DNA of 64,000 nt, taken from positions 41,623-105,622 of the forward strand of contig MEPO01000011.1 of the NCBI GenBank assembly GCA_001769805.1, read 5' to 3'. The DNA comes from Bdellovibrionales bacterium GWA1_52_35. GTDB lineage: Bacteria > Bdellovibrionota > UBA1018. A model generated the notes under the pieces. The model saw nothing but the letters and a program-made list of their open reading frames with translations. It was not told the DNA's origin and ran no database searches. Shown one piece after another: positions 5,617 through 58,504 of this stretch. The translations under genes and the position numbers were made by a program. Position 1 is the first letter of the stretch. Every line of letters starts with the position of its first letter.

Positions 5617-6579
5617 GTGGATCAACTTGCCCCAAATAACCGAACCCTCTCCATTGTCGTTCCCCTCTATAACGAGGAAGAAACCCTAGCCTATACTCAT
5701 CAGCGCCTTGCTCGGCTGTGCCTGAGTGAAAAACTGTCTGATATTTGTAAAATTGAAATCATCTATGTCGATGATGGTAGTGAGGATTCCTCCCCGGAGA
5801 TCCTGAAAGCAATTATAAATAGCAACACACCCGCGCTGGAGGCTCGGCATATCCGTTTTTCGAGGAATTTTGGACATTCTGCCGCCGTATTTGCCGGTTT
5901 AGAATTCGCAAAAGGAGATGTCATTGCGATTATTGATGCGGATTTGCAGGATCCACCGGAACTCATCCCACTCATGTATGAGCAGTTATGCAAGGGCGCT
6001 GATGTTATTTATGGCCAGCGGATAACCCGCGAGAGCGAGACACCGATCAAGCGGCTTACAGCATGGCTATTTTACAGAGTATTAGCTCTACTAACGGGCG
6101 TTAACATACCAAAAGATACTGGCGATTTTCGGATTATGGTTCGCGAAGTGGCGGAAGCGGTTCTCTCCTGTAAAGAGCATGAGCCATTTCTGCGCGGGCT
6201 GGTTGCCTGGGTAGGCTATCGTCAACGAGCATTCCAATACACTCGCGAAGGGCGCAAATATGGAACTACTAAATACCCATTTAAGAAGATGTTCCGCTTT
6301 GCTGCATTGGCCTTGGTAAGCTTTAGCTCTTTACCACTACGACTCGCACTTTACACAGGAGCGTTAGGATTAATTTTAAGTCTGGTATTTTTCCTTTGGG
6401 CGATTTTTGAGAGAGTTCACGGGCAGACGGTGCCAGGCTGGGCGTCTCTCTTTGTAGCGTTTACCTTTGGTCATTCGATGACATTGATGTTGGTCGGAAT
6501 AGTTGGAATCTACATTGGTCGACTCCATACTGAAACACAGGGACGGCCACGGTACATTGTGCGCCGAAGCCGCGGATAA
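5617..6579 (+). CDS. GtrB/ArnC-like polyprenyl-phosphate hexose synthase (GT2 with C-terminal TM pair)
   Basis: Has LSIVVPLYNEEETL, YVDDGSEDSS and IIDADLQDPPELI, matching the ArnC/GtrB DADLQ.PPE motif. Two C-terminal TM helices are present (ALVSFSSLPL..., LMLVGIVGIYIG). Confidence 0.8.
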   Translation: MDQLAPNNRTLSIVVPLYNEEETLAYTHQRLARLCLSEKLSDICKIEIIYVDDGSEDSSPEILKAIINSNTPALEARHIRFSRNFGHSAAVFAGLEFAKGDVIAIIDADLQDPPELIPLMYEQLCKGADVIYGQRITRESETPIKRLTAWLFYRVLALLTGVNIPKDTGDFRIMVREVAEAVLSCKEHEPFLRGLVAWVGYRQRAFQYTREGRKYGTTKYPFKKMFRFAALALVSFSSLPLRLALYTGALGLILSLVFFLWAIFERVHGQTVPGWASLFVAFTFGHSMTLMLVGIVGIYIGRLHTETQGRPRYIVRRSRG

Positions 6580-6613
6580 AGCATTCCCTCATTAAGGCAC
6601 TTGGAGGTGTTTT

Positions 6614-7369
6614 TTGAACAAGATTAAAGCTGAACCGACCGGGCTTCACGAGAGACTTTCTGAATTCGACGAGTATGCCGGTGATTACAATGCCGGAATG
6701 GAAAACCCGATCAAGCGACTCTTGGGCTCATCGGCGGACGACTACATTGACGTAAAGGCGAAATGGCTGATCAGGTATCTTGAAAAAGACAACAGAGGCC
6801 TGCCCGACAAACCGATGCGTATGCTCGATTTTGGTTGCGGACTTGGCGTATTGTTGCGCGCAGTACACCGACGCGGCTTTAAAGGTTCTTTGCATGGCTG
6901 CGATGTCTCGGAGCAGATGTTACAGCGCGCCGAAAAAATGGTGGGCTCCATAGCTGATTTTACCTTGATCAGCGAAAACGAGGTGCCGTTTCAGGATGAT
7001 ACTTTTGATGTCGTAGTTGCTAGTTCTGTTCTTCACCACATTCCCTCTGCCGACCGGGATAGATATTATAAAGAACTTATTCGCATCTTAGCGCCTGGGG
7101 GCGCCTTGGTAGTTTTTGAGCATAATCCCAGAAACCCCCTTGTTCGATGGGTAGTAAGTCGAACACCCATTGATAAGAACGCAGTTTTACTGGATTCATC
7201 CGAAGTACAACAGGCGTTTAAACACTTTCAAATGCTCAACGTGGACTGCCAATATATTTTATTCATGCCTCCGAGATTCAAGTGTATGCAGTCATTAGAG
7301 CGCCATCTAATACAAGTTCCTCTTGGTGGGCAATATGCCGTTTCTGGCTTGAAGCCTCCGATACGATAG
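6614..7369 (+). CDS. Class I SAM-dependent methyltransferase
   Basis: TTG start 6 nt after a GGAGGTG RBS. Motif I is MLDFGCGLGVLL. The acidic post-I CDVSE and motif IV-like LAPGGALVV are present. Confidence 0.75.
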   Translation: MNKIKAEPTGLHERLSEFDEYAGDYNAGMENPIKRLLGSSADDYIDVKAKWLIRYLEKDNRGLPDKPMRMLDFGCGLGVLLRAVHRRGFKGSLHGCDVSEQMLQRAEKMVGSIADFTLISENEVPFQDDTFDVVVASSVLHHIPSADRDRYYKELIRILAPGGALVVFEHNPRNPLVRWVVSRTPIDKNAVLLDSSEVQQAFKHFQMLNVDCQYILFMPPRFKCMQSLERHLIQVPLGGQYAVSGLKPPIR

Positions 7370-22103: not shown

Positions 22104-22583
22104 TCTGCTGGAGATCCGAGTCTTCGGTCGGCATCAACACTCACTTAAGCTTATGTCATCATTGCATTATTTAAATTACATGAAAACTCGGTGCTCGGAA
22201 CCGAATTTTCATGAACTACATTGATCGCTTCGAAGACCCAATGTTGGCAATATGTGCCGATGCTCAATGCGTTGTTATCGACGAAATGCAGAGACGTCCG
22301 ATTGAGGGGTCGCACTCTTGAGACGATTTAGGAATGCGTTTGGCTGACCAAATAAGTCGCCTTCGGGCGTAATAAGCGCAATGGTTTGGTCGGGTATGCT
22401 AACCATTTTTATCCCATTTACGTTTATCCCAACTTTATAAAAGAACTTCGCGATAACGGAAAAGTCCGTTCCAGTTCGAGCCTGCATTTGATCACATTTT
22501 CTTTCATTCTCTCTGGCGCACAACACACCCCGAAAGCAGGAGCTAGCAATTTGGTTGCTTAAATACAGTAAGTAGATCTTGAA

Positions 22584-23162
22584 TTGCACCGTCGTTCAGA
22601 AGATTCTAGTTTAATGAGCAAAACGTCGCCGTACGCCCTAAAAGATAGTGGACTCTTCGTTCCATCATCACCGCAGGAATTTTTTAAAACAGAAGTTAGA
22701 ACTGTTGATCAAGGGTATTTTGGCGTGTTTGCGATAGAGCAAATACCACAAGGAGCAATAATCGGGATAGACGGTGGCACAGTTGTGAGCTCAGTTGAAG
22801 ATGTTCCACCTGAGAAAAGGTACGCCGTTCTTATTACCGAGGGTCTTTTCTTGGCTCCTAACGACTATGAACATCTAGAGAACTTTTGGTATCTGAATCA
22901 CTCCTGTACCGCAAATGTTGCGAGAATCGGCGGCCTTGTCTTTGTCGCAAAGAAAATGATTACAATCGGCGAGCAACTTACAATTGACTACGCCCCTCTG
23001 ATAGCCGGCGTACCACAATGGACTATGGATTGTCTTTGCAAAGCACCGTCGTGCAGAGGACGAATATCCGGAGAAGACTGGCGCGATCCAAAAATAGCAG
23101 ATCATTTATGGCACGAATGGCTTCCATTTATCCAAAAACGAATTCTAGCGAATCGCTCATGA
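22584..23162 (+). CDS. SET-domain protein (putative protein-lysine methyltransferase)
   Basis: Has a GxG-rich N-SET region, NHSCTANV (the NHSC motif), EQLTIDYA (the ELxxDY motif) and a post-SET CLCKAPSC cysteine cluster. 192 aa. Confidence 0.8.
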   Translation: MHRRSEDSSLMSKTSPYALKDSGLFVPSSPQEFFKTEVRTVDQGYFGVFAIEQIPQGAIIGIDGGTVVSSVEDVPPEKRYAVLITEGLFLAPNDYEHLENFWYLNHSCTANVARIGGLVFVAKKMITIGEQLTIDYAPLIAGVPQWTMDCLCKAPSCRGRISGEDWRDPKIADHLWHEWLPFIQKRILANRS

Positions 23163-25429
23163 TTTCGGCATACATTTTTGGGGCACTTTTTCTTGCTGTT
23201 CCAGTTCTCGGCACAATTATATTTCCGGCGCAAAAAGATCTTATAATTGCAACTCACGAACTGATTTCAGAGGGGACCTTTGCTGCTATTCTTTTGTTCG
23301 CATATTTGAAACTTCAAAAAATAGCTTGGGGAAATTTTACTTGGATTGCTTTTGCTCTTATTGCATTGTTCATCTCTGATTCGCTGTATAGTGCTGGCGT
23401 TATTCGTGGCAACGGTCTTCCACCTCTTTTGGGCAACTTAAGCGAGTTCGGATACACGTTCTTTATGGTTTCTGCGCTTGGATTTTTTGCAGGCAAACGG
23501 AAGCTCATACTTAATGATCCAATTGCAAAATATATTTTTATCACCTGCCTGCTTGGGCATTTTTTGCTTTCCTATAAGTTTATACTTTCCGCGTTCTATA
23601 GCAGAGAAAGCACGCCAAGCGTATTTAACCTGCTCAACAGCACTATTTACGCCATTGCCAGCTCGCTGGTATTTGCGTTCTTAATTCCATTTATTTTGCG
23701 AATTTCAAAACGTTCCGAATACTGGTTTTTACAGTCTTTTCTGCTGCTGCTAATTTCTGATTTTGCAATTCGTTACCAATCAGCTTTCGTTTCGGAGAGC
23801 ATATTTTCTTTTGCGGAAAGCGGGTGGGCAGTCGCAACAGGGATATTCATGCTCGTGCTGTTTTTCAATAAACGAGCACCACAAGAGCTCTTTGCTCGAC
23901 TTTCCATACTACCCAGAATAATCAGCGTTAGGGTTATGCTGACTCTCGCAATTTCTAGCGCAAGTTTATTTCTCCTGGGCGGAGTGATTTTGATCAATAT
24001 ATTTTCGGTTCGAAACGCATTTCACCTAACGAATGCTTTATTTCTGATTTATGCGATCTGGGTAATTTCTAATGCGCTCGCTATCAAGGTATCTGAAGCA
24101 CTTTTGGAAGTTAGGAATCTAATGTTTTCTGGTGCTAACTCTGCGAGAGGGAGTACCAACTTAGAGGCGCTATCTGTCATCAACAAGCGCTTGGACCTGG
24201 CGGAAGTTGACCAACTTATCCTCGGCTATAACGATTTGGTCGGGGAGACCAATATTTTAATCACCGAATTAATTAACAAGGAACGGCTGGCAGCAATGGC
24301 AAATGTCGCCGCCCAAGTCGCCCACGACATTCGCTCGCCTCTGGCTGCGCTCGGTGCAATCGAGAAGGACCTTGTTCAAGTTCCGGAGAACACCCGTCAG
24401 ATTGTACGGCAGGCTGTGGGGCGAATACGCGACATCGCGAATAACCTGATAGAACAGCATGCAAAAGCTCCCAGTCGCGATCGGGGAAATTCGGAAGCCA
24501 AAGCATCTGGGATCCAAGAGCACGCGTCCACAGAGATGCCCACAGGCTTAGGCGTCAGTGATCAACATTTAGCCGAGCGCTGTCTCATTTCTACCTTGAT
24601 TGACGGACTGGTCACAGAGAAACGCCTCCAATATCGGGATCGTGCCGGGATAGAGATTGTCTTTGAACAGGATCGGGCAGGGTATGGACTATTTGCTGAT
24701 GTGGAGCTTGCCGAGTTCAAACGCGCGCTTTCAAATATCATTAACAACTCTGTCGAGGCGATCACTGGAGCAGGTCAAGTTTTGATCCGCACACACCCCG
24801 ATGGCGAACAGATCCAGATTCGAGTGATTGATAACGGACGCGGGATTCCCGCCAAGCTGCTTTCACGCTTAGGTGAGCGCGGGGCAACTTACGGCAAAGA
24901 GGGCGGCTCCGGACTTGGGCTTTTCCATGCAAAATCGGCATTAATAAAATGGCGCGGGACACTTTCTATTGAATCCAAGGAGGGTCACGGCACCACCGTC
25001 TCCTTGCACCTGCCCAAGGCTCCTACGCCACCTTGGTTTACAGAAAGGCTTCTGATTCCAAAGTCCGGGATTGTCGTTTCTTTGGATGACGACGTTTCAA
25101 TACATCATGTCTGGAAAGGCCGCCTGGAATCTGCCCGTGCACACGAGCAGGGCGTCACCCATCAGCAGTTCTTCACCCCTAAAGATTTCAAAACCTGGGT
25201 GCTGGGCAACATGCTTGATGTCGATCGCACCATATTTTTGGTGGATTACGAACTGCTGGGATTTAAGGAAACTGGACTTGATTTGCTCGAAGATCTCGCG
25301 ATTGGCGAACGGAGCATTCTTGTCACCAGCCGCTTTGAAGAGCACAGCCTGCTTGCGCGCGCGACACGATTGGGCGTACGTATCTTGCCCAAATCCATGG
25401 CCGGCTTTGTGCCGATCGAATCAGCCTGA
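23159..25429 (+). CDS. Hybrid sensor histidine kinase: about 10-TM membrane sensor, then HisKA, HATPase_c and a C-terminal receiver-like domain
   Basis: Start taken at the ATG that overlaps the SET stop (ATGA); the track ORF at 23018 lies inside SET. H-box AQVAHDIRSPLAAL. N/G boxes NNSVEAI, DNGRGIP and GGSGLGL. C-terminal VVSLDDDVSI...IFLVDYEL..., which is REC-like. Confidence 0.85.
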   Translation: MISAYIFGALFLAVPVLGTIIFPAQKDLIIATHELISEGTFAAILLFAYLKLQKIAWGNFTWIAFALIALFISDSLYSAGVIRGNGLPPLLGNLSEFGYTFFMVSALGFFAGKRKLILNDPIAKYIFITCLLGHFLLSYKFILSAFYSRESTPSVFNLLNSTIYAIASSLVFAFLIPFILRISKRSEYWFLQSFLLLLISDFAIRYQSAFVSESIFSFAESGWAVATGIFMLVLFFNKRAPQELFARLSILPRIISVRVMLTLAISSASLFLLGGVILINIFSVRNAFHLTNALFLIYAIWVISNALAIKVSEALLEVRNLMFSGANSARGSTNLEALSVINKRLDLAEVDQLILGYNDLVGETNILITELINKERLAAMANVAAQVAHDIRSPLAALGAIEKDLVQVPENTRQIVRQAVGRIRDIANNLIEQHAKAPSRDRGNSEAKASGIQEHASTEMPTGLGVSDQHLAERCLISTLIDGLVTEKRLQYRDRAGIEIVFEQDRAGYGLFADVELAEFKRALSNIINNSVEAITGAGQVLIRTHPDGEQIQIRVIDNGRGIPAKLLSRLGERGATYGKEGGSGLGLFHAKSALIKWRGTLSIESKEGHGTTVSLHLPKAPTPPWFTERLLIPKSGIVVSLDDDVSIHHVWKGRLESARAHEQGVTHQQFFTPKDFKTWVLGNMLDVDRTIFLVDYELLGFKETGLDLLEDLAIGERSILVTSRFEEHSLLARATRLGVRILPKSMAGFVPIESA

Positions 25430-27089: not shown

Positions 27090-28229
27090 TTAGACAAGAC
27101 CCTCATTTTTGCAGAAGACTGAAAACGGCAGAATCTCAACGCGATCCATGGGGCTTCGGTGTAATTTCCCCAAATGCACTTGGTAGAATTTTGGGATTGG
27201 GGTGCGCTCCAGAAAATATGGAATATGCGGCGATAGCTGCTTCTCGCCCGTTTTACATTCCACTGCAAAAACCGGTTTTTGATCTTTTAAGACGACGAAG
27301 TCGACTTCTCGTTTGTTAACATCTCGCAAAAAGCGCAGTTCCATCCGATGACCTTCGGTATCTTCCAGATAATGGCAGTACTTTAAAAGGTGGCTGGCAA
27401 CAAGGTTTTCAAATCGCGGCCCGGGAGCTATGACTTGACTCCAATCCCAAAGATAAAGCTTCTGCTCTTTCTTTACAGCCCGGAGCTTGGGTGCGCCATA
27501 AGGCGGAATACGATAGGCAAAGTATACGTTTTCGAGAAGACCGATCCATCGCTGAGCAGTTTTGAAATCAACTTCGAGATCACGCGCAAGATTTTTGACC
27601 GATAGAGGTGCCCCCACCCGATCGGGCAAAGCCTCGGCCAGGCGCTCAAGCAGTGACGCCTCCCTGACTCGCTCAAGATCCAGTAAATCCTGGTGAATCA
27701 CTCGATCCATCCTTTGAAGATGCCAGCGGCGCAGCTCTTTTTCACTTTGACCTAAAAATGGTTCAGGGAAACCACCAAATCGTAGAAGTCCGCTGAGTGC
27801 ACCTGGCTCATAACCCACCTCAGGAAGTGAAAGCGGATGCATGCGATAGTAGTGATATCGGCCCAGGAGAGAATCCCCCCCTCTTCTGTAGTGATTTAGA
27901 CGTGCTGAGCCGGTCACCAGGAAGGTATGAGTCTGCTTCTGGGTATCGTAAAATCCCTTTAGCAAGCCACGCCAACGCGCGTACTTGTGAACCTCGTCCA
28001 AAACGATAAGCCGCTCGGTTGTTGGCCAGTTTTTGTTGAGAATACTGCGTCGCTGTTCCAGATCATCCCAGTTCAGATAAGCCGGGTGTCCCGCATTGTA
28101 TTTGTGCAACAGCCCTTGGCAAAAGGTGGTTTTTCCCACTTGGCGCGGGCCACCGAGAAATACCATCTTCTTCTTCAGATCATCAATCACCGGAGTCTTC
28201 AGATAGCGTTCTAGTAGTAAAGTGGACAT
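27090..28229 (-). CDS. AAA-family ATPase with C-terminal DUF4143-like domain
   Basis: Walker A is GGPRQVGKTT and Walker B is LIVLDEV. 379 aa with an architecture typical of the widespread ATPase/DUF4143 proteins. Confidence 0.7.
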   Translation of the reverse strand: MSTLLLERYLKTPVIDDLKKKMVFLGGPRQVGKTTFCQGLLHKYNAGHPAYLNWDDLEQRRSILNKNWPTTERLIVLDEVHKYARWRGLLKGFYDTQKQTHTFLVTGSARLNHYRRGGDSLLGRYHYYRMHPLSLPEVGYEPGALSGLLRFGGFPEPFLGQSEKELRRWHLQRMDRVIHQDLLDLERVREASLLERLAEALPDRVGAPLSVKNLARDLEVDFKTAQRWIGLLENVYFAYRIPPYGAPKLRAVKKEQKLYLWDWSQVIAPGPRFENLVASHLLKYCHYLEDTEGHRMELRFLRDVNKREVDFVVLKDQKPVFAVECKTGEKQLSPHIPYFLERTPIPKFYQVHLGKLHRSPMDRVEILPFSVFCKNEGLV

Positions 28230-30780: not shown

Positions 30781-32001
30781 TTAGGACTTCGCCTTTAGAT
30801 ACGCTTCCATCTTCCCCAATCCATAGGTCTGGATCGCTTGCCATTGATTGTGATGCCGGCAGAGCAGTCTCAGGTTTTCGGGGTCTTTTGAACTTCCGCC
30901 GAGTGCGTGGGGTTTGCAGTGCTCGATTTCGAGTCCAAAAGTCGAGTTGCAACGTCTTCCGGTCTCAGCGCTGATGAATGCACAGCGGCCACCGTACTGC
31001 TTCCAGATCTGGGTACGCACAGAAGCGGGGATCGCGCGCGAGGTCTGGGCGACGATTCCCCTCTCTCCCTGGCTCCCGACTGAAACCGCCGTTGCCTCCG
31101 ACGTAATAAGCGCAACGTTTTGGTCGACTTTTAGCGAGACTGAACCCGCCGCTCGATTGTCCGATTCAACTTCTGATTCATTTTCTGGTTCTTTCTTCTG
31201 TTCTTTTTGATGAGTCTTCCGCTCCCGCACGACCTTCCTCAATGGATCAATTTCATCGAGAGTCACCTCACTCATCAGCTCAACCAGTTCGGGGTAAGAC
31301 CCGGGATTCCGGAGCCTGGCGGCACTCAGATCTCTCACCCGATGAATTTTATTCAGTTGCCCGGCATCCACGATGAAGCGAATCTCTGTTCGATCTTCGG
31401 TGATGACGCGTTCTTTTTGGACCTTGAGAGCCAAAGGCGAAATGGCGGCCAGCTCCCGCGTGACCTCTCGTGAGCTCTTGTTCTCACACTGGGCAAAGAG
31501 GGCGGAAGTCTCAGACTTGGTATATGTTTTGTGAGCTTGCTCACGCTCGGCCTTCAGGAAACCCTGAATCTGGCTGACGGCCGAAACTGAAAGAACTCCG
31601 CGCTCGATCTTGCCCTGAATTTCTGGATGGGTTTTGAGTGCCCGCATGGCAGAAATCCTCCGGTAAGCCGCAGCCTCCGAGTACTTCAGCTCCTTGATCG
31701 CGTAGTCCCAAAGACTGGGGTACCCGAGCCGGGCATAGGCTCGCCGCTTTTCGATTTCCGCCAAGTGATGCAGAATTTGGATCGTAATCCGCCTTTCAGT
31801 TTCCGCCAAGTTCCGCGTTTTGGACAAGAGCTCGTCAATTGATAAGCGCGAAACCTGCCCGGGAGCGGTGGAACCTGAAAACCCCTGACTTTTATCATCC
31901 GTCGAGTGCTGCATGAGTGACTCCTTTTGACCCGTCTGGGTGCAAATCAGGCGCCCACTATCAAAAGGTGGCAAAAGGTGGGGACCACCATTTTCCGGCA
32001 C
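30781..32001 (-). CDS. DUF222 + HNH endonuclease-domain protein
   Basis: The C-terminal ..GGRCAFISAETGRRCNSTFGLEIEHCKPHALGGSSKDPENLRLLCRHHN.. carries the H-N-H and Cys4 motifs. The N-terminal part is like the DUF222 / 13E12-repeat family. Confidence 0.75.
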   Translation of the reverse strand: MPENGGPHLLPPFDSGRLICTQTGQKESLMQHSTDDKSQGFSGSTAPGQVSRLSIDELLSKTRNLAETERRITIQILHHLAEIEKRRAYARLGYPSLWDYAIKELKYSEAAAYRRISAMRALKTHPEIQGKIERGVLSVSAVSQIQGFLKAEREQAHKTYTKSETSALFAQCENKSSREVTRELAAISPLALKVQKERVITEDRTEIRFIVDAGQLNKIHRVRDLSAARLRNPGSYPELVELMSEVTLDEIDPLRKVVRERKTHQKEQKKEPENESEVESDNRAAGSVSLKVDQNVALITSEATAVSVGSQGERGIVAQTSRAIPASVRTQIWKQYGGRCAFISAETGRRCNSTFGLEIEHCKPHALGGSSKDPENLRLLCRHHNQWQAIQTYGLGKMEAYLKAKS

Positions 32002-32038
32002 TTGCCCCCCCGTAGCCTTTCAGGTAAACCCGACTTCT

Positions 32039-33088
32039 ATGACATCAACTTCAAGAAATCTCCTGGTCACAGGAGCCTGTGGTTTCATTGGCAGCAACTT
32101 CGTCAGACAGCGCGTAGCCGAAGGTCACAACGTGACCGTGCTTGATGCCCTGACCTATGCCGGACATAAGGAAAATCTCGACGGAATCTCAGGCCCGGGC
32201 TCAGTGGAACTCGTGGTTGGCAATATCTGTAACGGGCCGCTTGTCGCCGAGCTTCTCACCCGCAACAAGATCAATGGTCTGATCAACTTCGCTGCCGAAT
32301 CCCATGTCGATCGCTCGATTGATGCACCCTCAGCTTTCATCGAGACGAACATCAACGGGACCTTCACTCTTTTGAATGCTTCTTACGAGTATTGGAAGAC
32401 GCTTCCGGAGAGTGAAAAGAATCAGTTCCGCTACGTTCAAATTTCGACTGACGAAGTGTACGGATCTCTGGGCACGACCGGAAAATTCCACGAGAAGCTT
32501 CCTTACGAACCGAACTCACCCTATTCCGCCTCCAAAGCCGCCGCAGATCACCTCGTGCGCGCCTGGCATCATACCTATGGCCTGCCCACGGTGACGACCA
32601 ACTGTTCAAATAACTACGGACCCCGCCAATTCCCGGAAAAGCTGATTCCTCATATGATTTTCTGCGCTTTGAACGGCAAACCCCTTCCCGTATACGGAGA
32701 CGGCGGAAATATCCGCGATTGGATCCACGTCGAAGACCACTGCAACGGGATCTGGCTCGCCCTGACCAAAGGCAAGCCCGGCGGGACTTACTGCTTCGGC
32801 GGAAATTCCGAACGCAATAACCTCGACGTCGTCCGCAACATCTGCCGAGCGCTGGACAAGCTCAGCCCCCGCAAAGACGGCAAATCGCATGACACTTCGA
32901 TCACCTTTGTTAAAGACCGCCTCGGCCATGACAGGCGGTATGCAATCGATGATTCCCTGGCTCAGCGAGAACTCGGATTCACGCGCGTCTATAAAGATTT
33001 CGAAGCCGGATTGGGCGCCACGATTCAGTGGTATCTCGAAAATGGCGCCTGGGTGCGTGCTGTAACGGGAAAGGCGGCCACAAAATGA
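32039..33088 (+). CDS. rfbB: dTDP-glucose 4,6-dehydratase
   Basis: Start at the ATG in frame with the track ORF but downstream of the HNH start. Has [15 protein letters not shown] and ..[13 protein letters not shown]... [13 protein letters not shown] is also present. Confidence 0.9.
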
Positions 33089-33969
33089 AAGGCATCATCC
33101 TCGCTGGCGGAAGTGGAACCCGGCTTTATCCTCTGACCCGGTGCTTGAGCAAACAGCTCCTGCCGGTTTATGACAAGCCGACGATTTACTATCCCCTCTC
33201 GACTTTGATGCTTTCGGGAATCCGCGAGATCCTGATCATCAGCACCCCTCGCGATCTACCCATGATTCGCGATCTTCTGGGCGATGGTAGTGAGCTGGGG
33301 CTCCGGCTCGAGTACGCCGAGCAGCCTAAACCTGCGGGCATTGCCCAGGCCTTCACTATTGGTGCGAACTTCATTGGCAAAGACGCCGTCTGTCTGATCC
33401 TCGGCGATAATATTTTCTATGGCCATGATCTGGTAACCTCGCTCGGCAGATCAGCGAAGCTGACACGTGGCGCCGAAGTGTATGCCTACCATGTGCAGGA
33501 CCCTGAACGGTATGGCGTCGTGGAATTCGATCAAAAAGGGCTGGCCATCAGTGTGGAAGAAAAGCCTAAAAAGCCGCGCTCCAACTGGGCCATTACCGGA
33601 CTTTATTTTTATGACAACGAAGTGGTCGAGATCGCAAAAAATCTGAAGCCCTCCGCCCGTGGTGAGCTGGAAATCACGGATATCAATCTCACGTACATGA
33701 AAAGAAATCAGCTCCAGGTGAAAAAAATGGGTCGAGGCGTAGCCTGGCTTGACAGCGGCACCTACGATTCATTGCTGGCCGCCTCGCAATTCGTACAAAC
33801 AATTGAGCTCAGGCAGGGCCTCAAAATCGCCTGTATTGAAGAGATCGCCTATACTCAGGGCTATATCGGGTCTGCGCAGATGGAGAAGCTTGCGGAAGTC
33901 TACAACAAGAGCTCCTACGGCGCGTACCTCAAGCAGGTTCTGCTGGAAAACCCTGATCGGCAATCATAA
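33085..33969 (+). CDS. rfbA: Glucose-1-phosphate thymidylyltransferase
   Basis: [26 protein letters not shown] and ..[17 protein letters not shown]... are present. ATGA overlap with rfbB. Confidence 0.95.
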
Positions 33970-33972
33970 GGA

Positions 33973-34896
33973 TTGAGCGTGATGACCTTGTCTCACCTGC
34001 AGCTTCCAGGAAAAATAGTGGTCTTTGGCACCTCAGGACAGGTCGGGGGCTCTCTTTTGAAGCTACTTGGGGAAAGAGGCATCGGCCTGGATTACCCTCA
34101 AGTGGATCTCTCCAAGCCTGAATCGCTAGCCCAGCATCTGGATCGCCTTCAACCAGACGCTGTCATCAATGCGGCGGCTTACACGCAAGTCGACAAGGCC
34201 GAGACCGAAGAGAAGCTTGCATATCTGATCAATGCCGAATCGCCCGGCGCTATCGCCCGGTGGTGCGCCGAAAAGAAAATTCCTTTTATTCATTATTCCA
34301 CCGATTACGTTTTTTCTGGAGAAGGGGAGCGGGCTTGGAATGAGGAAGACGAACCGCACCCCCTGAACAAGTATGGCCTGAGCAAACTCTTGGGTGAACA
34401 GGCGATCGCAAAGGCCGGCGGACAATGGCTTTTATTCCGGACTTCATGGATCTACGGAGCAACCGGCGTCAATTTTTTTAAAACAATGTTAAAGTGCGGA
34501 GCAGAACGAGAGGACCTTCGGATCGTCAATGACCAGTACGGTTCCCCGACCTATGCCCCTGAGCTTGCCGAAGCAACACTCAAGGGCCTTCACACTGCGC
34601 TGCTACAGAAGAGTGCAGGACCAGGAAGTACTTTTCCATCCGGAATTTATCATCTGACCGGGTCAGGCGTCACAACCTGGTTTGATTTTGCGAATGCTAT
34701 TTTCGAAGAGGCCAGAGTTTTTAAAATACCGTTGAAAATCCAAAAGCTGGTACCCATAACCTCAGCGGAGTACCCTACCCCGGCCCGCCGCCCTAGAAAT
34801 TCGCGTATGAACAACGAAAAAGCCCGTGGGGTCCTCGGCGTCAGCCTGCCGCACTGGAAAACGAGTCTGATCGAGTGTATGCTGCATTTCCAATGA
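33973..34896 (+). CDS. rfbD: dTDP-4-dehydrorhamnose reductase
   Basis: IVVFGTSGQVGGSL, ..NAAAYTQVDKAE.. and ..YGLSKLLGEQA.. (YxxxK) are present. Confidence 0.85.
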   Translation: MSVMTLSHLQLPGKIVVFGTSGQVGGSLLKLLGERGIGLDYPQVDLSKPESLAQHLDRLQPDAVINAAAYTQVDKAETEEKLAYLINAESPGAIARWCAEKKIPFIHYSTDYVFSGEGERAWNEEDEPHPLNKYGLSKLLGEQAIAKAGGQWLLFRTSWIYGATGVNFFKTMLKCGAEREDLRIVNDQYGSPTYAPELAEATLKGLHTALLQKSAGPGSTFPSGIYHLTGSGVTTWFDFANAIFEEARVFKIPLKIQKLVPITSAEYPTPARRPRNSRMNNEKARGVLGVSLPHWKTSLIECMLHFQ

Positions 34897-35453
34897 AAAT
34901 CACACCTCTCAAGCCAGTCGGTCTGGCCCTGATTGAACTCTCCCTTTATGGTGACGAGCGCGGATTTTTTGTTGAAAGATTTCATGAAGAGCGCTTCCAT
35001 GATGCCGGACTTTTCGCCCATTTTGTTCAGGACAATCACTCCCGCTCCGCCCCGGGTGTTTTGCGCGGTTTGCATTATCAGGTAAGCCCCCCACAAGGGA
35101 AGCTGGTCGGTGTGGTCCGCGGCGCGATCTGGGATGTTGTGGTGGATATTCGCCCTGAATCACCCACCTTCGGACAGCACTACGGAGTCGAACTCAGTGA
35201 TATGAATGGCCGACTCCTCTGGATTCCTGCCGGTTTTGCCCATGGTTTTTGCGTTCTCGGCGAGAGCCCCGCTGATGTCCTTTATAAAACAGACGGAATT
35301 TATAACGCAAGTACGGAGGGCGGGATTACCTGGAACGATCCCGAGCTGAAACTCCCATGGCCAATTGCCAACCCCATCGTTTCCAAACGAGATCAGGAGC
35401 AACCCTCATTTTCTGAGTACCGCAAGAAGGCGCCGAAATGGGCGCTCCTTTGA
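34893..35453 (+). CDS. rfbC: dTDP-4-dehydrorhamnose 3,5-epimerase
   Basis: Start at the ATG overlapping the rfbD stop. ..DERGFF.E.F.. and ..RGLHYQ.. are present. ..LWIPAGFAHGF.. is the RmlC signature. Confidence 0.9.
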   Translation: MKITPLKPVGLALIELSLYGDERGFFVERFHEERFHDAGLFAHFVQDNHSRSAPGVLRGLHYQVSPPQGKLVGVVRGAIWDVVVDIRPESPTFGQHYGVELSDMNGRLLWIPAGFAHGFCVLGESPADVLYKTDGIYNASTEGGITWNDPELKLPWPIANPIVSKRDQEQPSFSEYRKKAPKWALL

Positions 35454-44308: not shown

Positions 44309-45937
44309 TCAGTTCTTGACGAGCAAGACGACGTCTTTTCCAGAAAGCCGGTCCACGGCAATGGCGCTGCGGGTACAATTTTCTGAGACTTCCTGCCAAC
44401 TCGGCCCGTTCACGGAAGGCTCAGAGGTCATTTTTTCGATCATGCCCCGGACCTGCTCGGGATTCATTTCCCACCTGGAAATCGTTGGCGTGAGTAAAAG
44501 ATAATTGATCGACTTCCACATGGAATGAGTCGGTGGTGGAAATTTTTCGCTCAAGATCGTTTCTTCAAAGCCGGTCTCTCCAAAAGGCGTCCGTAGTACC
44601 CCAATCAGCGCGGGCGAGACAATCCCTTTGGCATTTGAACTGGGTAAGCATTTCAGAAGTGCCTGCGTATGGGATCGAAGATCTTGGGCAGCCGAAGAGG
44701 GAACGGTAAAAAACGGCGCACCACTCCCGAGAGCCAGAACCGAGAATAACAACCAGCTCCGCTTCCCCGGCATGAGTGCGACCGCAAGCCAAAAGCCGCC
44801 GAGCAAAGATGCGGAGTAATAATTCACAAGTGTTGCAGGCTGCCCGCCTAAAGTGGCCAGGACTGCTGCAATCGGAAGCACCCAGAACCAAAAGCGGGCT
44901 TTAAGTGAAACCCAGGGAGCAAATATCAAAAGCGAAAGCCAAGGTCGTGAAACAAGAAAAAATGCGATTTTTCGCAAGACAGAAGTAATATCCAGATCAA
45001 CGGCCCGGAGATACGGCATTGCCGAAGGAAGCTGCACAGCCATTCCCGAAAATTCCTGAACTCCCCATTCTCCTGTACTGAAGCGACGGATGGATAGAAA
45101 CAAAACCGTACTGATAGCTGATCCCAGCAAGATCGCCGCCACTGATGAAAAGAGTTGTGTCTTCGCGCGTTTTTGCCAGACACTTGCTGCAAACCAGAGA
45201 AGGACCGGGAATAAAATAAAAGGCGCATCCACCTTGGTCCCAAAGCCAAGGAGAATCCCGGCCATCCACGCCCAGTGGCGTAGCTTCCCATCGGCGACTC
45301 CCAATCCCCAACAAGTCAGCAAAACAGAAAATGGATAAACGACCTCAGGGTGAACATCGTAACCCAGGATTCGCCCCACCTGCGTGGACGACAGGAAACA
45401 GAACGCAACAATCCAGGCACCCAGCGGTCCCCACAAGGGTTTGGCCAAATTGGCAAGAACCACAGCAGCAAACGCGAGTGCAAGCGGTGCCAGAAGCAGT
45501 GCTGTTAATGTGGACCCGAAAAGCCACGTCAGCGGCAGAAATCCATAAAGGCTCCAGAAAGGATGAACGGCTCCATGCTGCATGAGCCCCGTCGTTTGTG
45601 GAGCAAAGTGAGTGAGAAATGGCACTCCTTTAACGAGGCTCCTGAGCATGTCCTCAAAAAGCCAGAAATCCTGCGCGTTGAGTGTAAGGGAGTACCATTG
45701 CAAAAATTTCTGAAAAGCTCCTATTGCGGAAAATGCCAGGGCGAGAATCCAGACGCTCGCATGGAAGTGGCTTTGAAGGGCTTTTGAAGCCCGCTCTTCC
45801 CAAGCAGTCCGGAGCGAACCGAGGCGGGTACGCAAGGCTTCGGGAGCGAAACGACTGGCCAGAACCACGCAAGCAAGAGCAATAGCCCCGGCCCACAAGA
45901 TCCACCGCAAACGAAGTTCGAGCTCAACGAGATTCAT
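44309..45937 (-). CDS. Polytopic membrane protein (about 542 aa; candidate GT-C-fold glycosyltransferase)
   Basis: Start taken at the internal ATG (MNLVELELRL...) to avoid overlap with the divergent gene. At least 12 hydrophobic segments and a soluble C-terminal region of about 110 aa. Confidence 0.45.
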   Translation of the reverse strand: MNLVELELRLRWILWAGAIALACVVLASRFAPEALRTRLGSLRTAWEERASKALQSHFHASVWILALAFSAIGAFQKFLQWYSLTLNAQDFWLFEDMLRSLVKGVPFLTHFAPQTTGLMQHGAVHPFWSLYGFLPLTWLFGSTLTALLLAPLALAFAAVVLANLAKPLWGPLGAWIVAFCFLSSTQVGRILGYDVHPEVVYPFSVLLTCWGLGVADGKLRHWAWMAGILLGFGTKVDAPFILFPVLLWFAASVWQKRAKTQLFSSVAAILLGSAISTVLFLSIRRFSTGEWGVQEFSGMAVQLPSAMPYLRAVDLDITSVLRKIAFFLVSRPWLSLLIFAPWVSLKARFWFWVLPIAAVLATLGGQPATLVNYYSASLLGGFWLAVALMPGKRSWLLFSVLALGSGAPFFTVPSSAAQDLRSHTQALLKCLPSSNAKGIVSPALIGVLRTPFGETGFEETILSEKFPPPTHSMWKSINYLLLTPTISRWEMNPEQVRGMIEKMTSEPSVNGPSWQEVSENCTRSAIAVDRLSGKDVVLLVKN

Positions 45938-46028
45938 AGGTATTATCGGCGATCTAACCACAACGAAGCATCTTTTAAAATGAAATTGACTAGACGCGGC
46001 GACCACTGCAACAGTAGCGAGAACGGCT

Positions 46029-47681
46029 ATGAAGAAATATTCAGCTCTCCTATTTGACGTGGTGATCGCGGTCCTGCTCGGGCTGTCTCTGAGTGGAGGC
46101 ATCGAGTGGGACGGTAGAACGATCCTGCGCCATGCGGCCGATCCGCGTCGCGCAGCCCTGATTCTGCTGGGCCTCGGGTATTTCTTTGTTCAGGAATTTA
46201 AAGTGCGAAGCATCTTCCTTCGTCTGGCCTCGCTTCTGATTCACAAACTCTCGACGATTCCTCATTGGCGTTGGGGATTTTTTGGCGCGGCATTTCTGCT
46301 CGCGGAAACGCTGTCGATCCTGCAGGTCCTGGCGCTCCGGGTTCGCCTTTATGACGTTGGGATTTTTCACCAGATTCTCTGGAGTCTGACTGAAGGTCTT
46401 GGCTTCCACAGTACGATCAGTGGGGCTGGCAATTTCTTGCTGGATCACTCAGCGGTATCGGTCGCACTCCTCGCGCCCTTTGCCTGGTTATCCGGGAATT
46501 CACCGCTATTTCTGCCCATCTTGCAACCCGTACTGCTATTCGGCGGGGCCGCTGCGTGGATCAGACTTGCCGAAAGATTGCCCGCTGTTTCGATCGAAAT
46601 TCGTGGTCGAATCGCAGCATATACGTTACTTGTGGTCGTCAGCTTTCAAAGCATCTGGGGAAATATTGAGTGGGGTTTCCACGAAAATGCCATCGCCTTC
46701 TTTTCACTCTCCTGGGCTTTCACGTGGATGTACCTGGGGAAGAACACCTGGGTCACGGGTCTGTTGCTGCTGATTGCCGCCGGTTCTAAAGAGATCTTGC
46801 TGGTCAGTGTCGGTTTTGGATTTTTCTTCTGGGCCTCTCTGAGCTGGAAAGACCGGGCCCGGGCCTGGCCGGGCATGCTTTCTAAGGTCGTAACGGGGAT
46901 TCTTTTAATCGCGCTCTTTGTGTTCTTCGAGAAACTTCCGCACCCGGCGGATAAAAATTATTTTCTCCGTTATTATTCATATCTGGGAACGGGACTCACT
47001 GATTTCTTCAAAACCCTTCTGCTGAATCCCTTCAGTGTCGTGCAAAACGTCGGAGCAGTGGAGCTGGCGAACTATTTTAAGACCGTTTTTCTTCCCTGGC
47101 TTGGAATCCCCCTGCTGCTCTCGGTTTGGCCGCGCGCACGGCCCGTCCGAAAATGGGGAGGACTCCTGCTTGTTATCCTTCCCTCTTTTGCAAGTGCCGC
47201 AATCGCGACTTACCCACCGCTTCGAGGCATAAATTATCATTATGTTCTGGAGCTCTGGCCTGCTTTGGCGGTCAGCACTTTAATTGGAATTTCATTTTTC
47301 AGAGAAAGTGCCATTCGGCGTATTCTGCAGATCTGGCTACTCCTTGCCCTTCTGGGGCTTGACTTCGATCCGATTTCCTCGATTCGGGAGAACTTCTCAG
47401 GTGCGATCCGTCAGAGTGACGCCCGCCAGGCCATGAGCAACATTCCAAACGAGAGCACGGTCATGGCAGACGAATTGGCCGGAACCTGGGTGGCGGGACG
47501 CAGGATCGTCACCCGATGGCCGGATCTCCATTTCCTGGAAAATGGCTGTCCCGATTGGCTCGTGCTTGAACGATCACAGGATAAAGACAACCAGAAGTCG
47601 CAAATATTCACTTGCCCGAACAATCGCAAACCGGTGCTTCAGTGGGAGCACGGCGATTGGGCCGCGTACCGGCTGCTCTGA
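46029..47681 (+). CDS. Polytopic membrane protein (550 aa; candidate GT-C-fold glycosyltransferase)
   Basis: About 12 hydrophobic segments and a soluble C-terminal domain of about 100 aa. Confidence 0.45.
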   Translation: MKKYSALLFDVVIAVLLGLSLSGGIEWDGRTILRHAADPRRAALILLGLGYFFVQEFKVRSIFLRLASLLIHKLSTIPHWRWGFFGAAFLLAETLSILQVLALRVRLYDVGIFHQILWSLTEGLGFHSTISGAGNFLLDHSAVSVALLAPFAWLSGNSPLFLPILQPVLLFGGAAAWIRLAERLPAVSIEIRGRIAAYTLLVVVSFQSIWGNIEWGFHENAIAFFSLSWAFTWMYLGKNTWVTGLLLLIAAGSKEILLVSVGFGFFFWASLSWKDRARAWPGMLSKVVTGILLIALFVFFEKLPHPADKNYFLRYYSYLGTGLTDFFKTLLLNPFSVVQNVGAVELANYFKTVFLPWLGIPLLLSVWPRARPVRKWGGLLLVILPSFASAAIATYPPLRGINYHYVLELWPALAVSTLIGISFFRESAIRRILQIWLLLALLGLDFDPISSIRENFSGAIRQSDARQAMSNIPNESTVMADELAGTWVAGRRIVTRWPDLHFLENGCPDWLVLERSQDKDNQKSQIFTCPNNRKPVLQWEHGDWAAYRLL

Positions 47682-58400: not shown

Positions 58401-58504
58401 TTACCCGAGGGGCGCTCAATGACCATGTCCTGAATCTCGCCATTTTCCATCAGCGCGATCCGGGTTTCCGGTAGTGAAGCATTAATTATCAATTCTGTAG
58501 ACAT
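55460..58504 (-). CDS. rne: RNase E/G-family endoribonuclease with about 330-aa acidic insertion in the S1 domain and Arg/Gly-rich C-terminal tail
   Basis: Has S1 start ..GNIYKGRVTRVLPGMQAAFVDIG..AFLYV... and, after the insert, ..LKEGQEVLVQVAKEPIATKGARLTCHISLPGRHLVCMP... Catalytic blocks GGIIILDLIDM, DLGLVEMTRKR and Zn-link CESCTVCEGKGY are present. C-terminal RDRGRGGRDRGGRD and G-rich tail. Confidence 0.9.
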   Translation of the reverse strand: MSTELIINASLPETRIALMENGEIQDMVIERPSGKGVAGNIYKGRVTRVLPGMQAAFVDIGLEKAAFLYVDDVFVHSEIWEEEEGTQDLLETAEGSEGTITPNTESGAEGVVQVAAVIAGSVQDEPSGSVSAEPEQAPDSVTDADRDRQEKEDAENLAQDFLNDADDEEDDEDPEDEDDHGPIGMEQDPEDKSGTPEGTVAPEREASAPEQSPESRESQESQESKEAKDVSPAGEGQDSAEGEGGDRASRRGRRGRRGGRYRRKERSPNAAAAPGTEAASTDYPENYVEQVAETGGDLGSDRSSMMSEGETAGIPADRPTEAQPQAQATSPVQPVDSKGGRRPEFRETRSRDRRIKPKVQRSVRGQVNIQDLLKEGQEVLVQVAKEPIATKGARLTCHISLPGRHLVCMPTIDHVGVSRRIERDDERRKLREHVERYRPKNLGFIVRTASGRQQSEKRIKQDIDYLARLWTEIREKAAEVTAPAMVYEDLNPVLRAIRDWVTEDIDKIVVDSRYHFNEIQRFVAHFMPSLRQKIDLYHGDVPVFDAYGISTELARALERKVWLKSGGYLVIDQAEALVAIDVNTGRFVGKKNLEDTILKTNLEAVEEIAYQLRLRNAGGIIILDLIDMEKEENKHRVYRALEEALKKDRARPTIMKISDLGLVEMTRKRTRDTMVRTLCESCTVCEGKGYIKSKQTVAYEVLRELEREGIEKDIGKILVQAHPDVIDTLAIDERETLDHMERRYRKQIYLQAAAEFHIEQFEVVGDKGPRSEKSREQGSDHRSDHREQRDRGRGGRDRGGRDREQQRQPKARVIIQPVIAGQPEKPEKPVTRGVITPLAHPLPLPVRPSEVEHAREAGPGPEGETSPGNMVIQPRMEPDHDMTEEDRLAFLRAQAAQDAALAKYHGAAGGPNAAAPGRGAGGKPGDRNRDRDQDRDRNARKRRGRRGGRFRRDNRKDFGGPQGPGQEGSGVISPKDSGNHGGHGGSGDSGAGGNSGGDTGGGAGGGGEHSQPPV
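57834..57869. repeat. Four degenerate 9-bp tandem repeats (gattcttgg-like) inside rne, encoding an ESQ/ESK repeat
   Basis: gattcttgg gattcttgg gattctcga gattctggc are read directly. They encode ..SRESQESQESKE.. on the minus strand. Confidence 0.6.

Follow-up and report, generated by a model that had tools for sequence, protein, structure and literature searches.

We found a SET-domain methyltransferase gene whose stop codon overlaps the start codon of a membrane-bound hybrid histidine kinase gene in a 64-kb window (the whole stretch of DNA analyzed) from a groundwater MAG of the Bdellovibrionales. The same pair occurs in about a dozen very distant bacteria, and the two proteins therefore almost certainly function together in an undescribed signaling module. 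A literature search found no published SET–kinase module, in line with the novelty claimed in the earlier note, though a review of prokaryotic SET gene contexts may mention one in passing. This cytoplasmic methyltransferase–kinase module probably uses methyl-lysine inside the signaling pathway. Our preferred reading, to which we give a little less than an even chance, is that SET and kinase form a dedicated two-gene module, both proteins being produced from a single transcript through translational coupling, with the SET enzyme methylating its own pathway.

Conservation of the adjacency, which the earlier note had proposed as a check, was clearly positive. A SET gene is followed directly on the same strand by a kinase homologue, usually with a 4-nt overlap, in 12 deeply diverged lineages (the window, L022, L001, L010, L023, L016, L019, L026, L017, L020, L109, and L110), and the kinase homologues of these lineages cover the transmembrane (TM), catalytic, and receiver (REC) parts. 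In a 13th lineage, L006, the two genes are convergent, and the kinase is absent in three of the 16 informative SET lineages (L014, L018, and L021). Between lineages, identity is 40–59% for SET (about 50%) and 24–44% for the kinase (about 30%), so the adjacency has been kept far beyond normal synteny decay. The pairing does not reflect chance: the kinase TM family is so small (222 clusters among 1.84 billion proteins in an exhaustive search with a profile of 11 homologues) that chance adjacency is negligible. The pair is also present in an Elusimicrobiota MAG. Pairwise SET and kinase identities correlated with a Pearson r of 0.49, driven by one close pair, and the Spearman coefficient was not significant; this mirror-tree comparison shows deep, star-like divergence and nothing beyond it.

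The conservation extends to the junction itself. In the window, A23159 T G A23162 (+) can be read directly as the SET TGA and the kinase ATG, the ATGA coupling that had been described for this pair. Comparable junctions are ATGA in L020 and L110, GTGA in L010 and L017, and TTGA in L023; L109 has a 4-nt overlap, L022 has TGAaATG, and L001 has TAAATG, so that in most lineages the genes overlap or are separated by at most 1 nt. No third gene, such as one for an Hpt protein, a response regulator, or a substrate, is conserved around the pair across lineages, nor are biosynthetic, transporter, or secretion genes. SET–kinase fusion proteins, which would have supported a physical complex independently, were not found among about 260 family members. 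The kinase is likewise missing next to more than 450 more distant SET relatives; at 74 loci of the more distant SET clade there is neither such a kinase nor a recurrent neighbor. Neither protein matched a PADLOC defense-system model.

The SET open reading frame runs from a TTG at 22584 or an ATG at 22614 to the TGA at 23160–23162 on the forward strand. Because MSxxSPY opens all homologues, we placed the start at ATG 22614, which gives a 182-aa product (22614–23162, +), the length also found in the NCBI annotation. GenBank lists both the SET and the kinase gene as "hypothetical". Pfam SET (PF00856) matched the protein over aa 36–126 at 39.3 bits, well above the gathering score of 22.4, and was present in 7/7 close homologues. 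All catalytic and post-SET motifs are there on the forward strand: the GxG SAM motif GYFGVFA (aa 34–40; 22713–22733), NHSC (aa 95–98; 22896–22907), the catalytic-Tyr motif IDY within QLTIDY (aa 124–126, with Y126; 22983–22991), and the post-SET CxCx4C as CLCKAPSC (aa 140–147; 23031–23054), followed by a conserved C-terminal helix, WHEWLPFIQ (23109–23135). N95, H96, C98, D125, and Y126 are invariant in a seven-sequence alignment, as are C140, C142, and C147, which with C98 make up a predicted post-SET zinc cluster. The SET protein has kept all residues required for SAM binding, methyl transfer, and the zinc cluster. A profile search against the PDB matched the SET domain of MLL1 at 1.3e-12 over aa 31–150. 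For the predicted SET beta-fold with pseudoknot, an AF2 model of moderate confidence (mean pLDDT 61, from a shallow seven-sequence MSA) gave only SET domains among the 50 PDB matches listed by Foldseek, with TM-scores of only 0.41–0.55. The SET protein carries no signal peptide or other recognizable export feature and its N-terminus is hydrophilic, which points to a cytoplasmic site of action.

With eukaryotic-type SET protein-lysine methyltransferases (MLL1/KMT2A, EHMT2, SETD2, and NSD1) and with stand-alone prokaryotic SET proteins such as Methanosarcina Go1-SET (PMC3980110), this enzyme has in common the predicted fold and the catalytic and cofactor motifs, namely GxG, NHxC, the xDY tyrosine, and the post-SET CxCx4C. 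It differs from both in its minimal size (182 aa), in having a conserved stretch of 25 aa at the N-terminus and a C-terminal WxEWLPxIQ helix of its own, and in being genetically locked to a sensor kinase with no chromatin-like substrate evident. Bacterial SET proteins had been described for this locus as uncommon and mostly effector-like, which does not hold: free-living bacteria are known to carry SET genes (PMC3980110), and the SET protein of the window has more than 450 relatives, mostly from soil metagenomes. The hosts of the family seen here are non-pathogen groundwater and soil bacteria.

The kinase is a 756-aa hybrid histidine kinase (23159–25429, +; stop codon 25427–25429). Its L022 orthologue, 64% identical, begins MIFNYIFG, which corresponds to MISAYIFG at 23159 in the window. 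Some public annotations start the kinase at 23018 (803 aa) or 23108 (773 aa); these starts are unsupported because the L022 protein begins at the equivalent of 23159 and the in-frame stretch upstream is unconserved relative to it. The same orthologue refutes the feared start at ATG 23018, which would have lain inside the SET gene. The N-terminal polytopic membrane sensor domain (aa 1–312; 23159–24094, +) has no Pfam match and contains about 10 TM segments predicted by hydropathy alone, seven strong and three weaker, with the family-signature motif ISDFAIRYQ at 23753–23779 (+). A cytoplasmic linker, the DHp domain, and the catalytic domain follow at 24095–25021 (+), with the H-box AHDIRSPL at 24320–24343 (His389 at 24323–24325), the N box at 24734–24760, G1 at 24830–24847, and G2 at 24902–24922, all on the forward strand. 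HATPase_c (PF02518) matched aa 520–621 at 76.3 bits; Pfam HisKA fell below threshold (E 0.062), though the H-box is nonetheless present. Across 110 family members, the His column is invariant, and those of Asn and Gly vary little or not at all.

The C-terminal domain (about aa 622–756; 25022–25429, +) was assigned by AF2, Foldseek, and conserved columns. Pfam, phmmer, and a profile search against the PDB gave no match for it, nor did hhalign against a CheY sequence. AF2 predicted a (beta-alpha)5 fold with a pLDDT of 94.2, and the best 31 Foldseek matches, and nearly all of the 50 listed, were receiver domains, including those of KdpE, QseB, CKI1, and Sln1. The model thus identifies a divergent receiver, detected by structure prediction only. 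Its acidic pocket DDD (D643–645; 25085–25093, +), Asp696 at the phospho-acceptor position (25244–25246, +), Thr/Ser (T723/S724; 25325–25330, +), and Lys745 (25391–25393, +) are all conserved in homologue columns. His389, the ATP-binding boxes, and the receiver acidic pocket, Thr, and Lys set are accordingly all kept in this kinase. Most kinase relatives carry a second REC-like domain that is absent here. A scan that covered the kinase and most of the larger ORFs in the window found no Hpt or response-regulator domain; such proteins may be encoded elsewhere in the genome. These results bear out what the earlier note had read from the letters, namely a genuine SET domain, detectable with PF00856, next to a 10-TM hybrid kinase with a HisKA/HATPase core and a receiver-like C-terminus, the last by structure (pLDDT 94) and not by sequence.

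Sln1, CKI1, and RcsC/ArcB-type hybrid kinases likewise combine an H-box DHp domain, HATPase_c, and a C-terminal receiver with Asp/Thr/Lys, and the receiver model superposes on those of Sln1 and CKI1. Unlike them, the window kinase has an undescribed sensor of about 10 TM segments for which there is no Pfam model, a receiver too divergent for Pfam Response_reg, and no Hpt domain in the protein.

Upstream of the SET gene lies an intergenic region of 510 bp (22104–22613). It had been described as an AT-rich gap of about 480 bp; measured to the ATG it is 510 bp long, and its AT bias is only mild (GC 0.435 versus 0.50 for the window). A terminator-like hairpin lies at 22188–22204 (+), past the glycan methyltransferase gene on the upstream side, and directly before the SET ATG there is a short motif common to the window and the orthologous L022 locus. 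No Rfam family, riboswitch or otherwise, matched this leader, and a sigma-70 promoter scan of it gave nothing convincing. Glycan genes stand on either side of the pair, so it lies inside the glycan locus and not at its edge, where it had been placed. The neighbors of the pair differ in every other lineage, which makes the glycan context specific to the window genome and leaves the suggested link to envelope signaling or the glycan locus unsupported.

The family was also sampled with the kinase as the starting point. When only the TM domain was used as the query, a word-indexed search yielded no homologues, probably because hydrophobic words swamped it; among the long TM-family members found by profile, 109/110 were histidine kinases by local BLAST classification. 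The upstream contexts sampled from the kinase side were SET (five), an LSD-like oxidase (two), an FkbH-like protein (one), a C39-like protein (one), and an unknown (one), and the enzymes other than SET and the oxidase that precede family kinases are a C39-like peptidase, an FkbH-like protein, and a PF00144 serine-hydrolase-like protein. None of the partner enzymes has a signal peptide. At the two sister kinases, the upstream position of SET is taken by an LSD1/LSD2-like flavin amine oxidase that matched LSD2 (7e-62) and LSD1 (2e-53) better than spermine oxidase (1e-43). This oxidase aligns over its full length with the amine-oxidase domain of LSD2, but in contrast to LSD1/LSD2 (KDM1A/B) it consists of the oxidase domain only, with no SWIRM or Tower, and it is absent from the window. 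The oxidase-linked kinases are 41–45% identical to SET-linked ones and nest among them in an unbootstrapped, star-like NJ tree. Within the flanks read, each locus has a putative writer or a putative eraser, never both, and a separate receiver protein adjoins some loci (REC-HTH in L104, REC-like in L110). Because polyamine oxidases have the same fold, we put forward lysine demethylation by the sister-locus oxidase as a hypothesis.

The preferred reading, a SET enzyme that methylates its own kinase pathway, is a proposal, as is the suggestion in the earlier note that lysine methylation feeds into or reports on envelope signaling. It would run in the following steps. The 10-TM domain would sense a membrane or envelope cue, upon which the kinase would autophosphorylate on His389 and pass the phosphoryl group to Asp696 of its own receiver. 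The co-produced SET enzyme would place a methyl-lysine mark on a component of the same pathway, either the cytoplasmic domains of the kinase or an immediate phosphorelay partner, and this mark would determine the gain of the signal or its memory, much as CheR acts on chemoreceptors, although the chemistry is not the same. A search of the kinase for a lysine specific to the SET-linked group gave no convincing candidate: none is both invariant among SET-linked kinases and missing from the rest, and K678 (56% versus 5%) and position 630 (62% versus 17%, Arg in the window) come closest. The LSD-like oxidase in the position of SET at sister kinases fits reversible N-methyl-lysine chemistry as a theme of the family, and a further possibility, which we consider rather unlikely, is a writer/eraser system in which SET and the LSD1/LSD2-like oxidases of sister lineages add and remove a methyl group on a lysine of the kinase or its relay partner, providing adaptation or memory.

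The likeness to CheR/CheB and CheA would be an analogy of logic only: a methyltransferase, with a putative demethylating enzyme in sister loci, appears dedicated to a histidine-kinase pathway in both. CheR has a Rossmann fold and O-methylates glutamates of MCPs, and CheB is a receiver-fused esterase, whereas the window enzyme has a predicted SET fold, from which N-methylation of lysine is expected, and a flavin amine oxidase would be the eraser. Among the ORFs scanned, the window has no MCP, CheR, or CheB. CheR itself has been reported to methylate PhoP (PMC8546571).

Alternatively, the kinase may be the sensor and SET its effector, with receiver phosphorylation recruiting or activating SET to methylate a third-party cytoplasmic target, for example a nucleoid, ribosomal, or envelope-biosynthesis protein, and with the sensor driving other enzymes in sister lineages. 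The chemically unrelated partners agree no less well with an interchangeable output enzyme than with a kinase modifier: the upstream enzyme (SET, LSD-like, C39-like, FkbH-like, or PF00144) is swappable, often with a 4-nt overlap, while the kinase is constant. SET also occupies the position that a response-regulator gene usually has in two-component operons, the window kinase ends in a receiver with no Hpt or response regulator found in the ORFs scanned, and SET is more conserved (about 50%) than the kinase (about 30%), as expected if its target is external and conserved. Against this, no REC–SET or kinase–SET fusions occur although receiver-fused output enzymes are common, no gene that might encode a target is conserved next to the pair, and the separate receiver proteins adjoining the L104 and L110 loci suggest that a conventional output exists. 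We regard this explanation as unlikely, if credible.

A second alternative is that SET, not being a protein methyltransferase, methylates a free amine or thioether metabolite, that the sister oxidases act on a related amine, and that the 10-TM kinase senses the metabolite or its product. BurB, a Burkholderia SET methionine S-methyltransferase (PDB 9l4t), methylates free methionine, which shows that small molecules, too, can be substrates for the SET fold (PMC12542666). Like the window SET, BurB is small, stand-alone, and of similar size, and the two have the NHxC to post-SET region in common; it was among both the sequence matches (1.4e-8) and the fold matches. Polyamine and spermine oxidases belong to the oxidase family, and FkbH-like, PF00144, and C39-like partners are typical of small-molecule or peptide metabolism. 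The BurB match is partial, however, covering only aa 90–155, and is weaker than those to protein-lysine methyltransferases such as MLL1, which was both better and longer. The substrate of BurB is a free amino acid and its setting a biosynthetic cluster, whereas the surroundings of the SET–kinase pair show no conserved biosynthetic or transporter genes, and the oxidase is closer to LSD2 and LSD1 than to polyamine oxidases, all of which makes a metabolite substrate distinctly improbable.

Still less probable is that the two genes share only an operon and inheritance, with no action on each other, SET methylating a housekeeping protein while expressed from the promoter of the kinase operon. Three SET lineages without the kinase, and half of the sampled kinases without SET, fit this explanation, but tight stop–start coupling has been kept in a dozen lineages at 24–59% identity, and linkage seldom persists for such a time if it has no function. 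Another point against it is that the more distant SET clade has neither kinase nor recurrent neighbor.

Legionella RomA/LegAS4 and Chlamydia NUE are secreted bacterial SET effectors, and they are set apart from the window SET by context, not by sequence comparison: the window SET lacks an export signal and is operonic with a kinase, and its organism is no intracellular pathogen. That SET is secreted to methylate prey or host proteins as these effectors do, a notion favored by the predatory group to which this Bdellovibrionales MAG belongs and by the mostly host-directed nature of the characterized bacterial SET proteins (PMC3980110), is hardly tenable given the absence of any recognizable export feature, an obligate coupling to a kinase with cytoplasmic domains that is unexpected for an effector, the occurrence of the pair in Elusimicrobiota, and the lack of conserved secretion genes nearby.

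Most of what is known about protein-lysine methylation in bacteria concerns ribosomal proteins, flagellin and pilin, and effectors directed at the host, and we know of no established role for it inside two-component signaling. A SET enzyme locked to a sensor kinase offers a concrete and testable entry point: only two genes are involved, both small, and one candidate for the substrate is obvious. The pair also brings to light two uncatalogued domains missed by annotation pipelines, a rare sensor domain of about 10 TM segments and a receiver variant invisible to Pfam. A writer/eraser system, if true, would parallel CheR/CheB with lysine as the modified residue, and it would mean that both enzyme classes of eukaryotic histone methylation are already tied to signal transduction in prokaryotes. 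Should the LSD-like oxidases prove to be demethylases, writers and erasers of the "histone code" type would be at work in bacterial signaling, which would be relevant to an old question, the roles that SET and LSD-type enzymes had before chromatin existed.

We read the sequence directly and found a first open reading frame running from TTG 22584 or ATG 22614 to the TGA at 23160-23162, followed in a different frame by a second whose ATG (23159-23161) overlaps that stop and which ends at 25429. An earlier note on this DNA had described just such an ATGA overlap between a SET-domain protein gene (SET, forward strand) and a histidine kinase gene. Because all aligned SET homologues begin with MSxxSPY and the NCBI annotation gives a length of 182 aa, we place the SET start at 22614. 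Public annotations of the kinase differ in length (756, 773, and 803 aa). Its orthologue at locus L022 (64% identical) has the N-terminus MIFNYIFGTIYLIIPILGT, which aligns with MISAYIFGALFLAVPVLGT of the window at 23159, and the in-frame stretch 5' of 23159 is not conserved against that orthologue; we therefore take the ATG of the ATGA as the kinase start, and not the upstream ATG at 23018 that the earlier note had named as incompatible with the pairing. Both products are "hypothetical protein" in the public annotation of Bdellovibrionales bacterium GWB1_52_6 and GWA1_52_35, which are groundwater MAGs.

The SET domain claimed for the upstream gene was recovered by Pfam at 39.3 bits (threshold 22.4) with a complete motif set, namely GYFGVFA, NHSC, QLTIDY (containing Tyr126), and a post-SET CLCKAPSC, and NCBIfam has no model for the protein. 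Residues N95, H96, C98, D125, Y126, C140, C142, and C147 were invariant across seven homologues. Searched against the PDB, the homologue profile matched the SET domains of MLL1/KMT2A best (1.3e-12), followed by EHMT2, ASH1L, and SETD2, and the match to BurB, a small-molecule SET enzyme (1.4e-8), was limited to aa 90-155. The AF2 model was moderate (pLDDT 61, seven-sequence MSA), and all 50 of the Foldseek matches listed from the PDB were SET domains (TM-scores 0.41-0.55). SET is thus predicted to be a catalytically intact, cytoplasmic SET methyltransferase.

The downstream protein had been described as a hybrid kinase with a polytopic N-domain and a receiver-like C-terminus, and our analysis upholds this. 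Hydropathy indicated about 10 transmembrane (TM) segments in aa 1-312, which match no Pfam family. HATPase_c was found at 76 bits (aa 520-621); HisKA fell below the Pfam threshold, with the H-box AHDIRSPL (His389), N box, G1, and G2 all present and their columns invariant or nearly so among 110 members of the kinase family. Sequence methods gave no receiver match for the last ~135 aa, which AF2 modeled from a 23-sequence alignment as a (beta-alpha)5 fold (pLDDT 94.2). Receiver domains made up the best 31 Foldseek matches of this model and almost all of the 50 that were listed, among them KdpE, QseB, CKI1, Sln1, and CheY, and the alignment showed conservation of the DDD pocket, Asp696, Thr/Ser723-724, and Lys745. 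Fold, structural matches, and pocket residues together make this a genuine hybrid kinase. A second receiver-like domain of ~110-150 aa occurs in most relatives and is absent from the window kinase and its closest orthologue. The receiver variant itself (window 25022-25429 and its relatives, alignment A2) is invisible to Pfam Response_reg, has a conserved PPWF lead-in, and is widespread among kinases of Elusimicrobiota and Bdellovibrionota, most of which carry a second such domain.

We collected SET relatives from a protein search (7 clusters) and the contigs of those clusters, and by scanning 185,579 species genomes (6 loci) as well as metagenomes (>460 matches, best 80 retained), and queried all loci by tblastn with SET and three parts of the kinase. 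In the close SET clade (≥42% identity), almost all lineages with sufficient flank carry a homologue of the same kinase directly downstream on the same strand, spanning TM, catalytic, and receiver parts, so the adjacency is kept in relatives. These lineages are window/L015, L022, L001-5, L010-13, L023, L026, L017, L020, an Elusimicrobiota MAG (L016=L024), and Bacteriovoracaceae UBA4573 (L019=L025), and starting from kinase homologues yielded two further pairs, L109 and L110. The junction is ATGA in the window, L020, and L110, GTGA in L010 and L017, TTGA in L023, a 4-nt overlap in L109, TGAaATG in L022, and TAAATG in L001. At L006 the kinase is convergent to SET, with a kinase paralogue 2 kb upstream, and in three lineages (L014, L018, L021) it is absent. 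One MAG, Deltaproteobacteria bacterium nXXbin1, holds two SET copies, one kinase-coupled (L020:5959-6546) and one alone beside unrelated genes (L021:5965-6540). At 74 distant-clade loci (30-40% identity, mostly soil), tblastn detected no such kinase, and the loci share no recurrent neighbor; one metagenome contig of this clade has tandem SET genes (L075:185-694 and 745-1167).

Between lineages, identity is 40-59% for SET and 24-44% for the kinase, so the linkage has outlived ordinary synteny. When the TM domain was used as a profile in an exhaustive search, just 222 clusters emerged among 1.84 billion representatives, a family so small that chance adjacency is out of the question; 109 of its 110 long members are kinases. 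SET and the kinase are thus both intact as enzymes, they are co-translated, and selection has preserved them as a pair.

We scored the gene upstream of the kinase in 10 kinase lineages: it is SET in five, a flavin amine oxidase in two (L102/103 and L107), an FkbH/HAD-IIIC-like protein with a 4-nt overlap in one (L108:1331-3004), an overlapping Peptidase_C39_2 protein in one (L106:3348-4001), and off the contig end in one (L104/L105). The oxidases (L103:2569-3867, before kinase P0010, and L107:1681-2961, before kinase P0012) occupy the slot held by SET in the window and are orthologues (58% identity). In the PDB they matched LSD2/KDM1B over the full length (7e-62) and LSD1/KDM1A (2e-53), with spermine oxidase (1e-43) and then polyamine oxidases (1e-38) ranking lower. 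Across their full length, the oxidase-linked kinases share 41-45% identity with the SET-linked kinases of L110 and L010, more than most SET-linked kinases share among themselves, and they nest among SET-linked kinases in a rough NJ tree; within one kinase lineage, then, the slot holds either a lysine-methyltransferase-type or a lysine-demethylase-type enzyme. Transposase fragments (rve, HTH_21) lie downstream of the oxidase-kinase locus L102/L103. At L110 (4280-5203, reverse strand, and 6399-7254, forward strand), the SET-kinase pair adjoins a convergently encoded protein of 307 aa whose N-terminus is receiver-like, and VirB3/VirB4 type IV secretion genes are found in the vicinity. The SET-kinase or oxidase-kinase module may travel on mobile elements.

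The AT-rich intergenic region of ~480 bp reported before SET is present, but measures 510 bp and is just mildly AT-rich (GC 0.435). Within this leader, a hairpin resembling a terminator follows the upstream gene, and there is no Rfam element. A motif shared, shortly before the SET start, by the two closest loci, the window (22575-22616) and L022 (3960-4003), TCTTGAATT followed after 22 nt by TAKTTTWATG, could on these two sequences be a promoter very near the start codon. The leader also contains a 104-aa antisense ORF (22275-22589, reverse strand), a 70-aa gene in one public assembly, with no Pfam or PADLOC match and no conservation at the L022 locus.

The pair does not sit at the edge of a glycan locus as proposed, since glycan-biosynthesis genes flank it on both sides: GT4, GDP-mannose dehydratase, Wzy_C, and GT1 genes upstream, and PGM/PMM (25630), rmlABCD-type genes (31940-35453), and more glycosyltransferases to ~51 kb downstream. 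Other lineages have unrelated neighbors, so we regard this setting as incidental. The proposal that lysine methylation is tied to envelope signaling is supported in part: a functional link between SET and the kinase is strongly supported by their conserved adjacency, while the mechanism and a tie to the envelope are conjectural. The surface-glycan region is very large (161-22103 and 25630-~51000), with two Wzy_C proteins, several GT2/GT4 glycosyltransferases, GDP-mannose dehydratases, epimerases, C- and O-methyltransferases, and a divergent DUF2079 membrane-protein pair (44309-47681). GC is lower in the first ~24 kb (0.40-0.47) than in the remainder (0.50-0.58). An AAA_14/DUF4143 ATPase (27090-28229, reverse strand) gave a match at 2.6e-48 to PDC-S01, a candidate defence family of PADLOC. 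A lysine methyltransferase of the PrmA type, acting on ribosomal protein L11 (54473-55456, reverse strand), adjoins RNase E/G (55460-58504, reverse strand), so the genome encodes at least one further lysine methyltransferase, of a conventional kind.

We infer that SET and the kinase act in one pathway. Because writer and eraser alternate in sister loci and SET holds an accessory-gene position, we tentatively favor a model in which SET would put methyl-lysine onto the cytoplasmic domains of the kinase or its nearest phosphorelay partner, and this mark would tune the signal. Counting against it, we found no lysine specific to SET-linked kinases, no SET fusion among 110 long TM-family members, and, in the flanks covered, no locus with both writer and eraser. 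Its main rival, rather doubtful overall, is that the kinase receiver controls a swappable output enzyme, which better explains the C39-like, FkbH-like, and PF00144 partners. Action of SET on a small molecule has a precedent in BurB (PMC12542666) and fits the polyamine-oxidase relatives of the sister-locus oxidase; we consider it improbable. Mere co-expression is quite unlikely. A secreted effector role is very unlikely; no signal peptide was found in SET or in any upstream partner enzyme. The view that bacterial SET proteins are uncommon and mostly effector-like is outdated, such genes being documented in free-living bacteria and archaea (PMC3980110).

The known cases in which two-component proteins are methylated all involve CheR-type enzymes, as for PhoP (PMC8546571). 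The earlier note was aware of no described SET-kinase module, and our full-text literature search likewise found no such operon within its coverage. The components belong to known families; to our knowledge, no description exists of their conserved pairing, of the TM sensor domain, or of the cryptic receiver. C39_2-like and FkbH/HAD-IIIC-like genes, which encode unrelated cytoplasmic enzymes, overlap other kinases of the family, as does a PF00144 beta-lactamase-like gene upstream of the L006 paralogue (L006:2416-3492), which suggests that an enzyme coupled to a kinase may be a general architecture.
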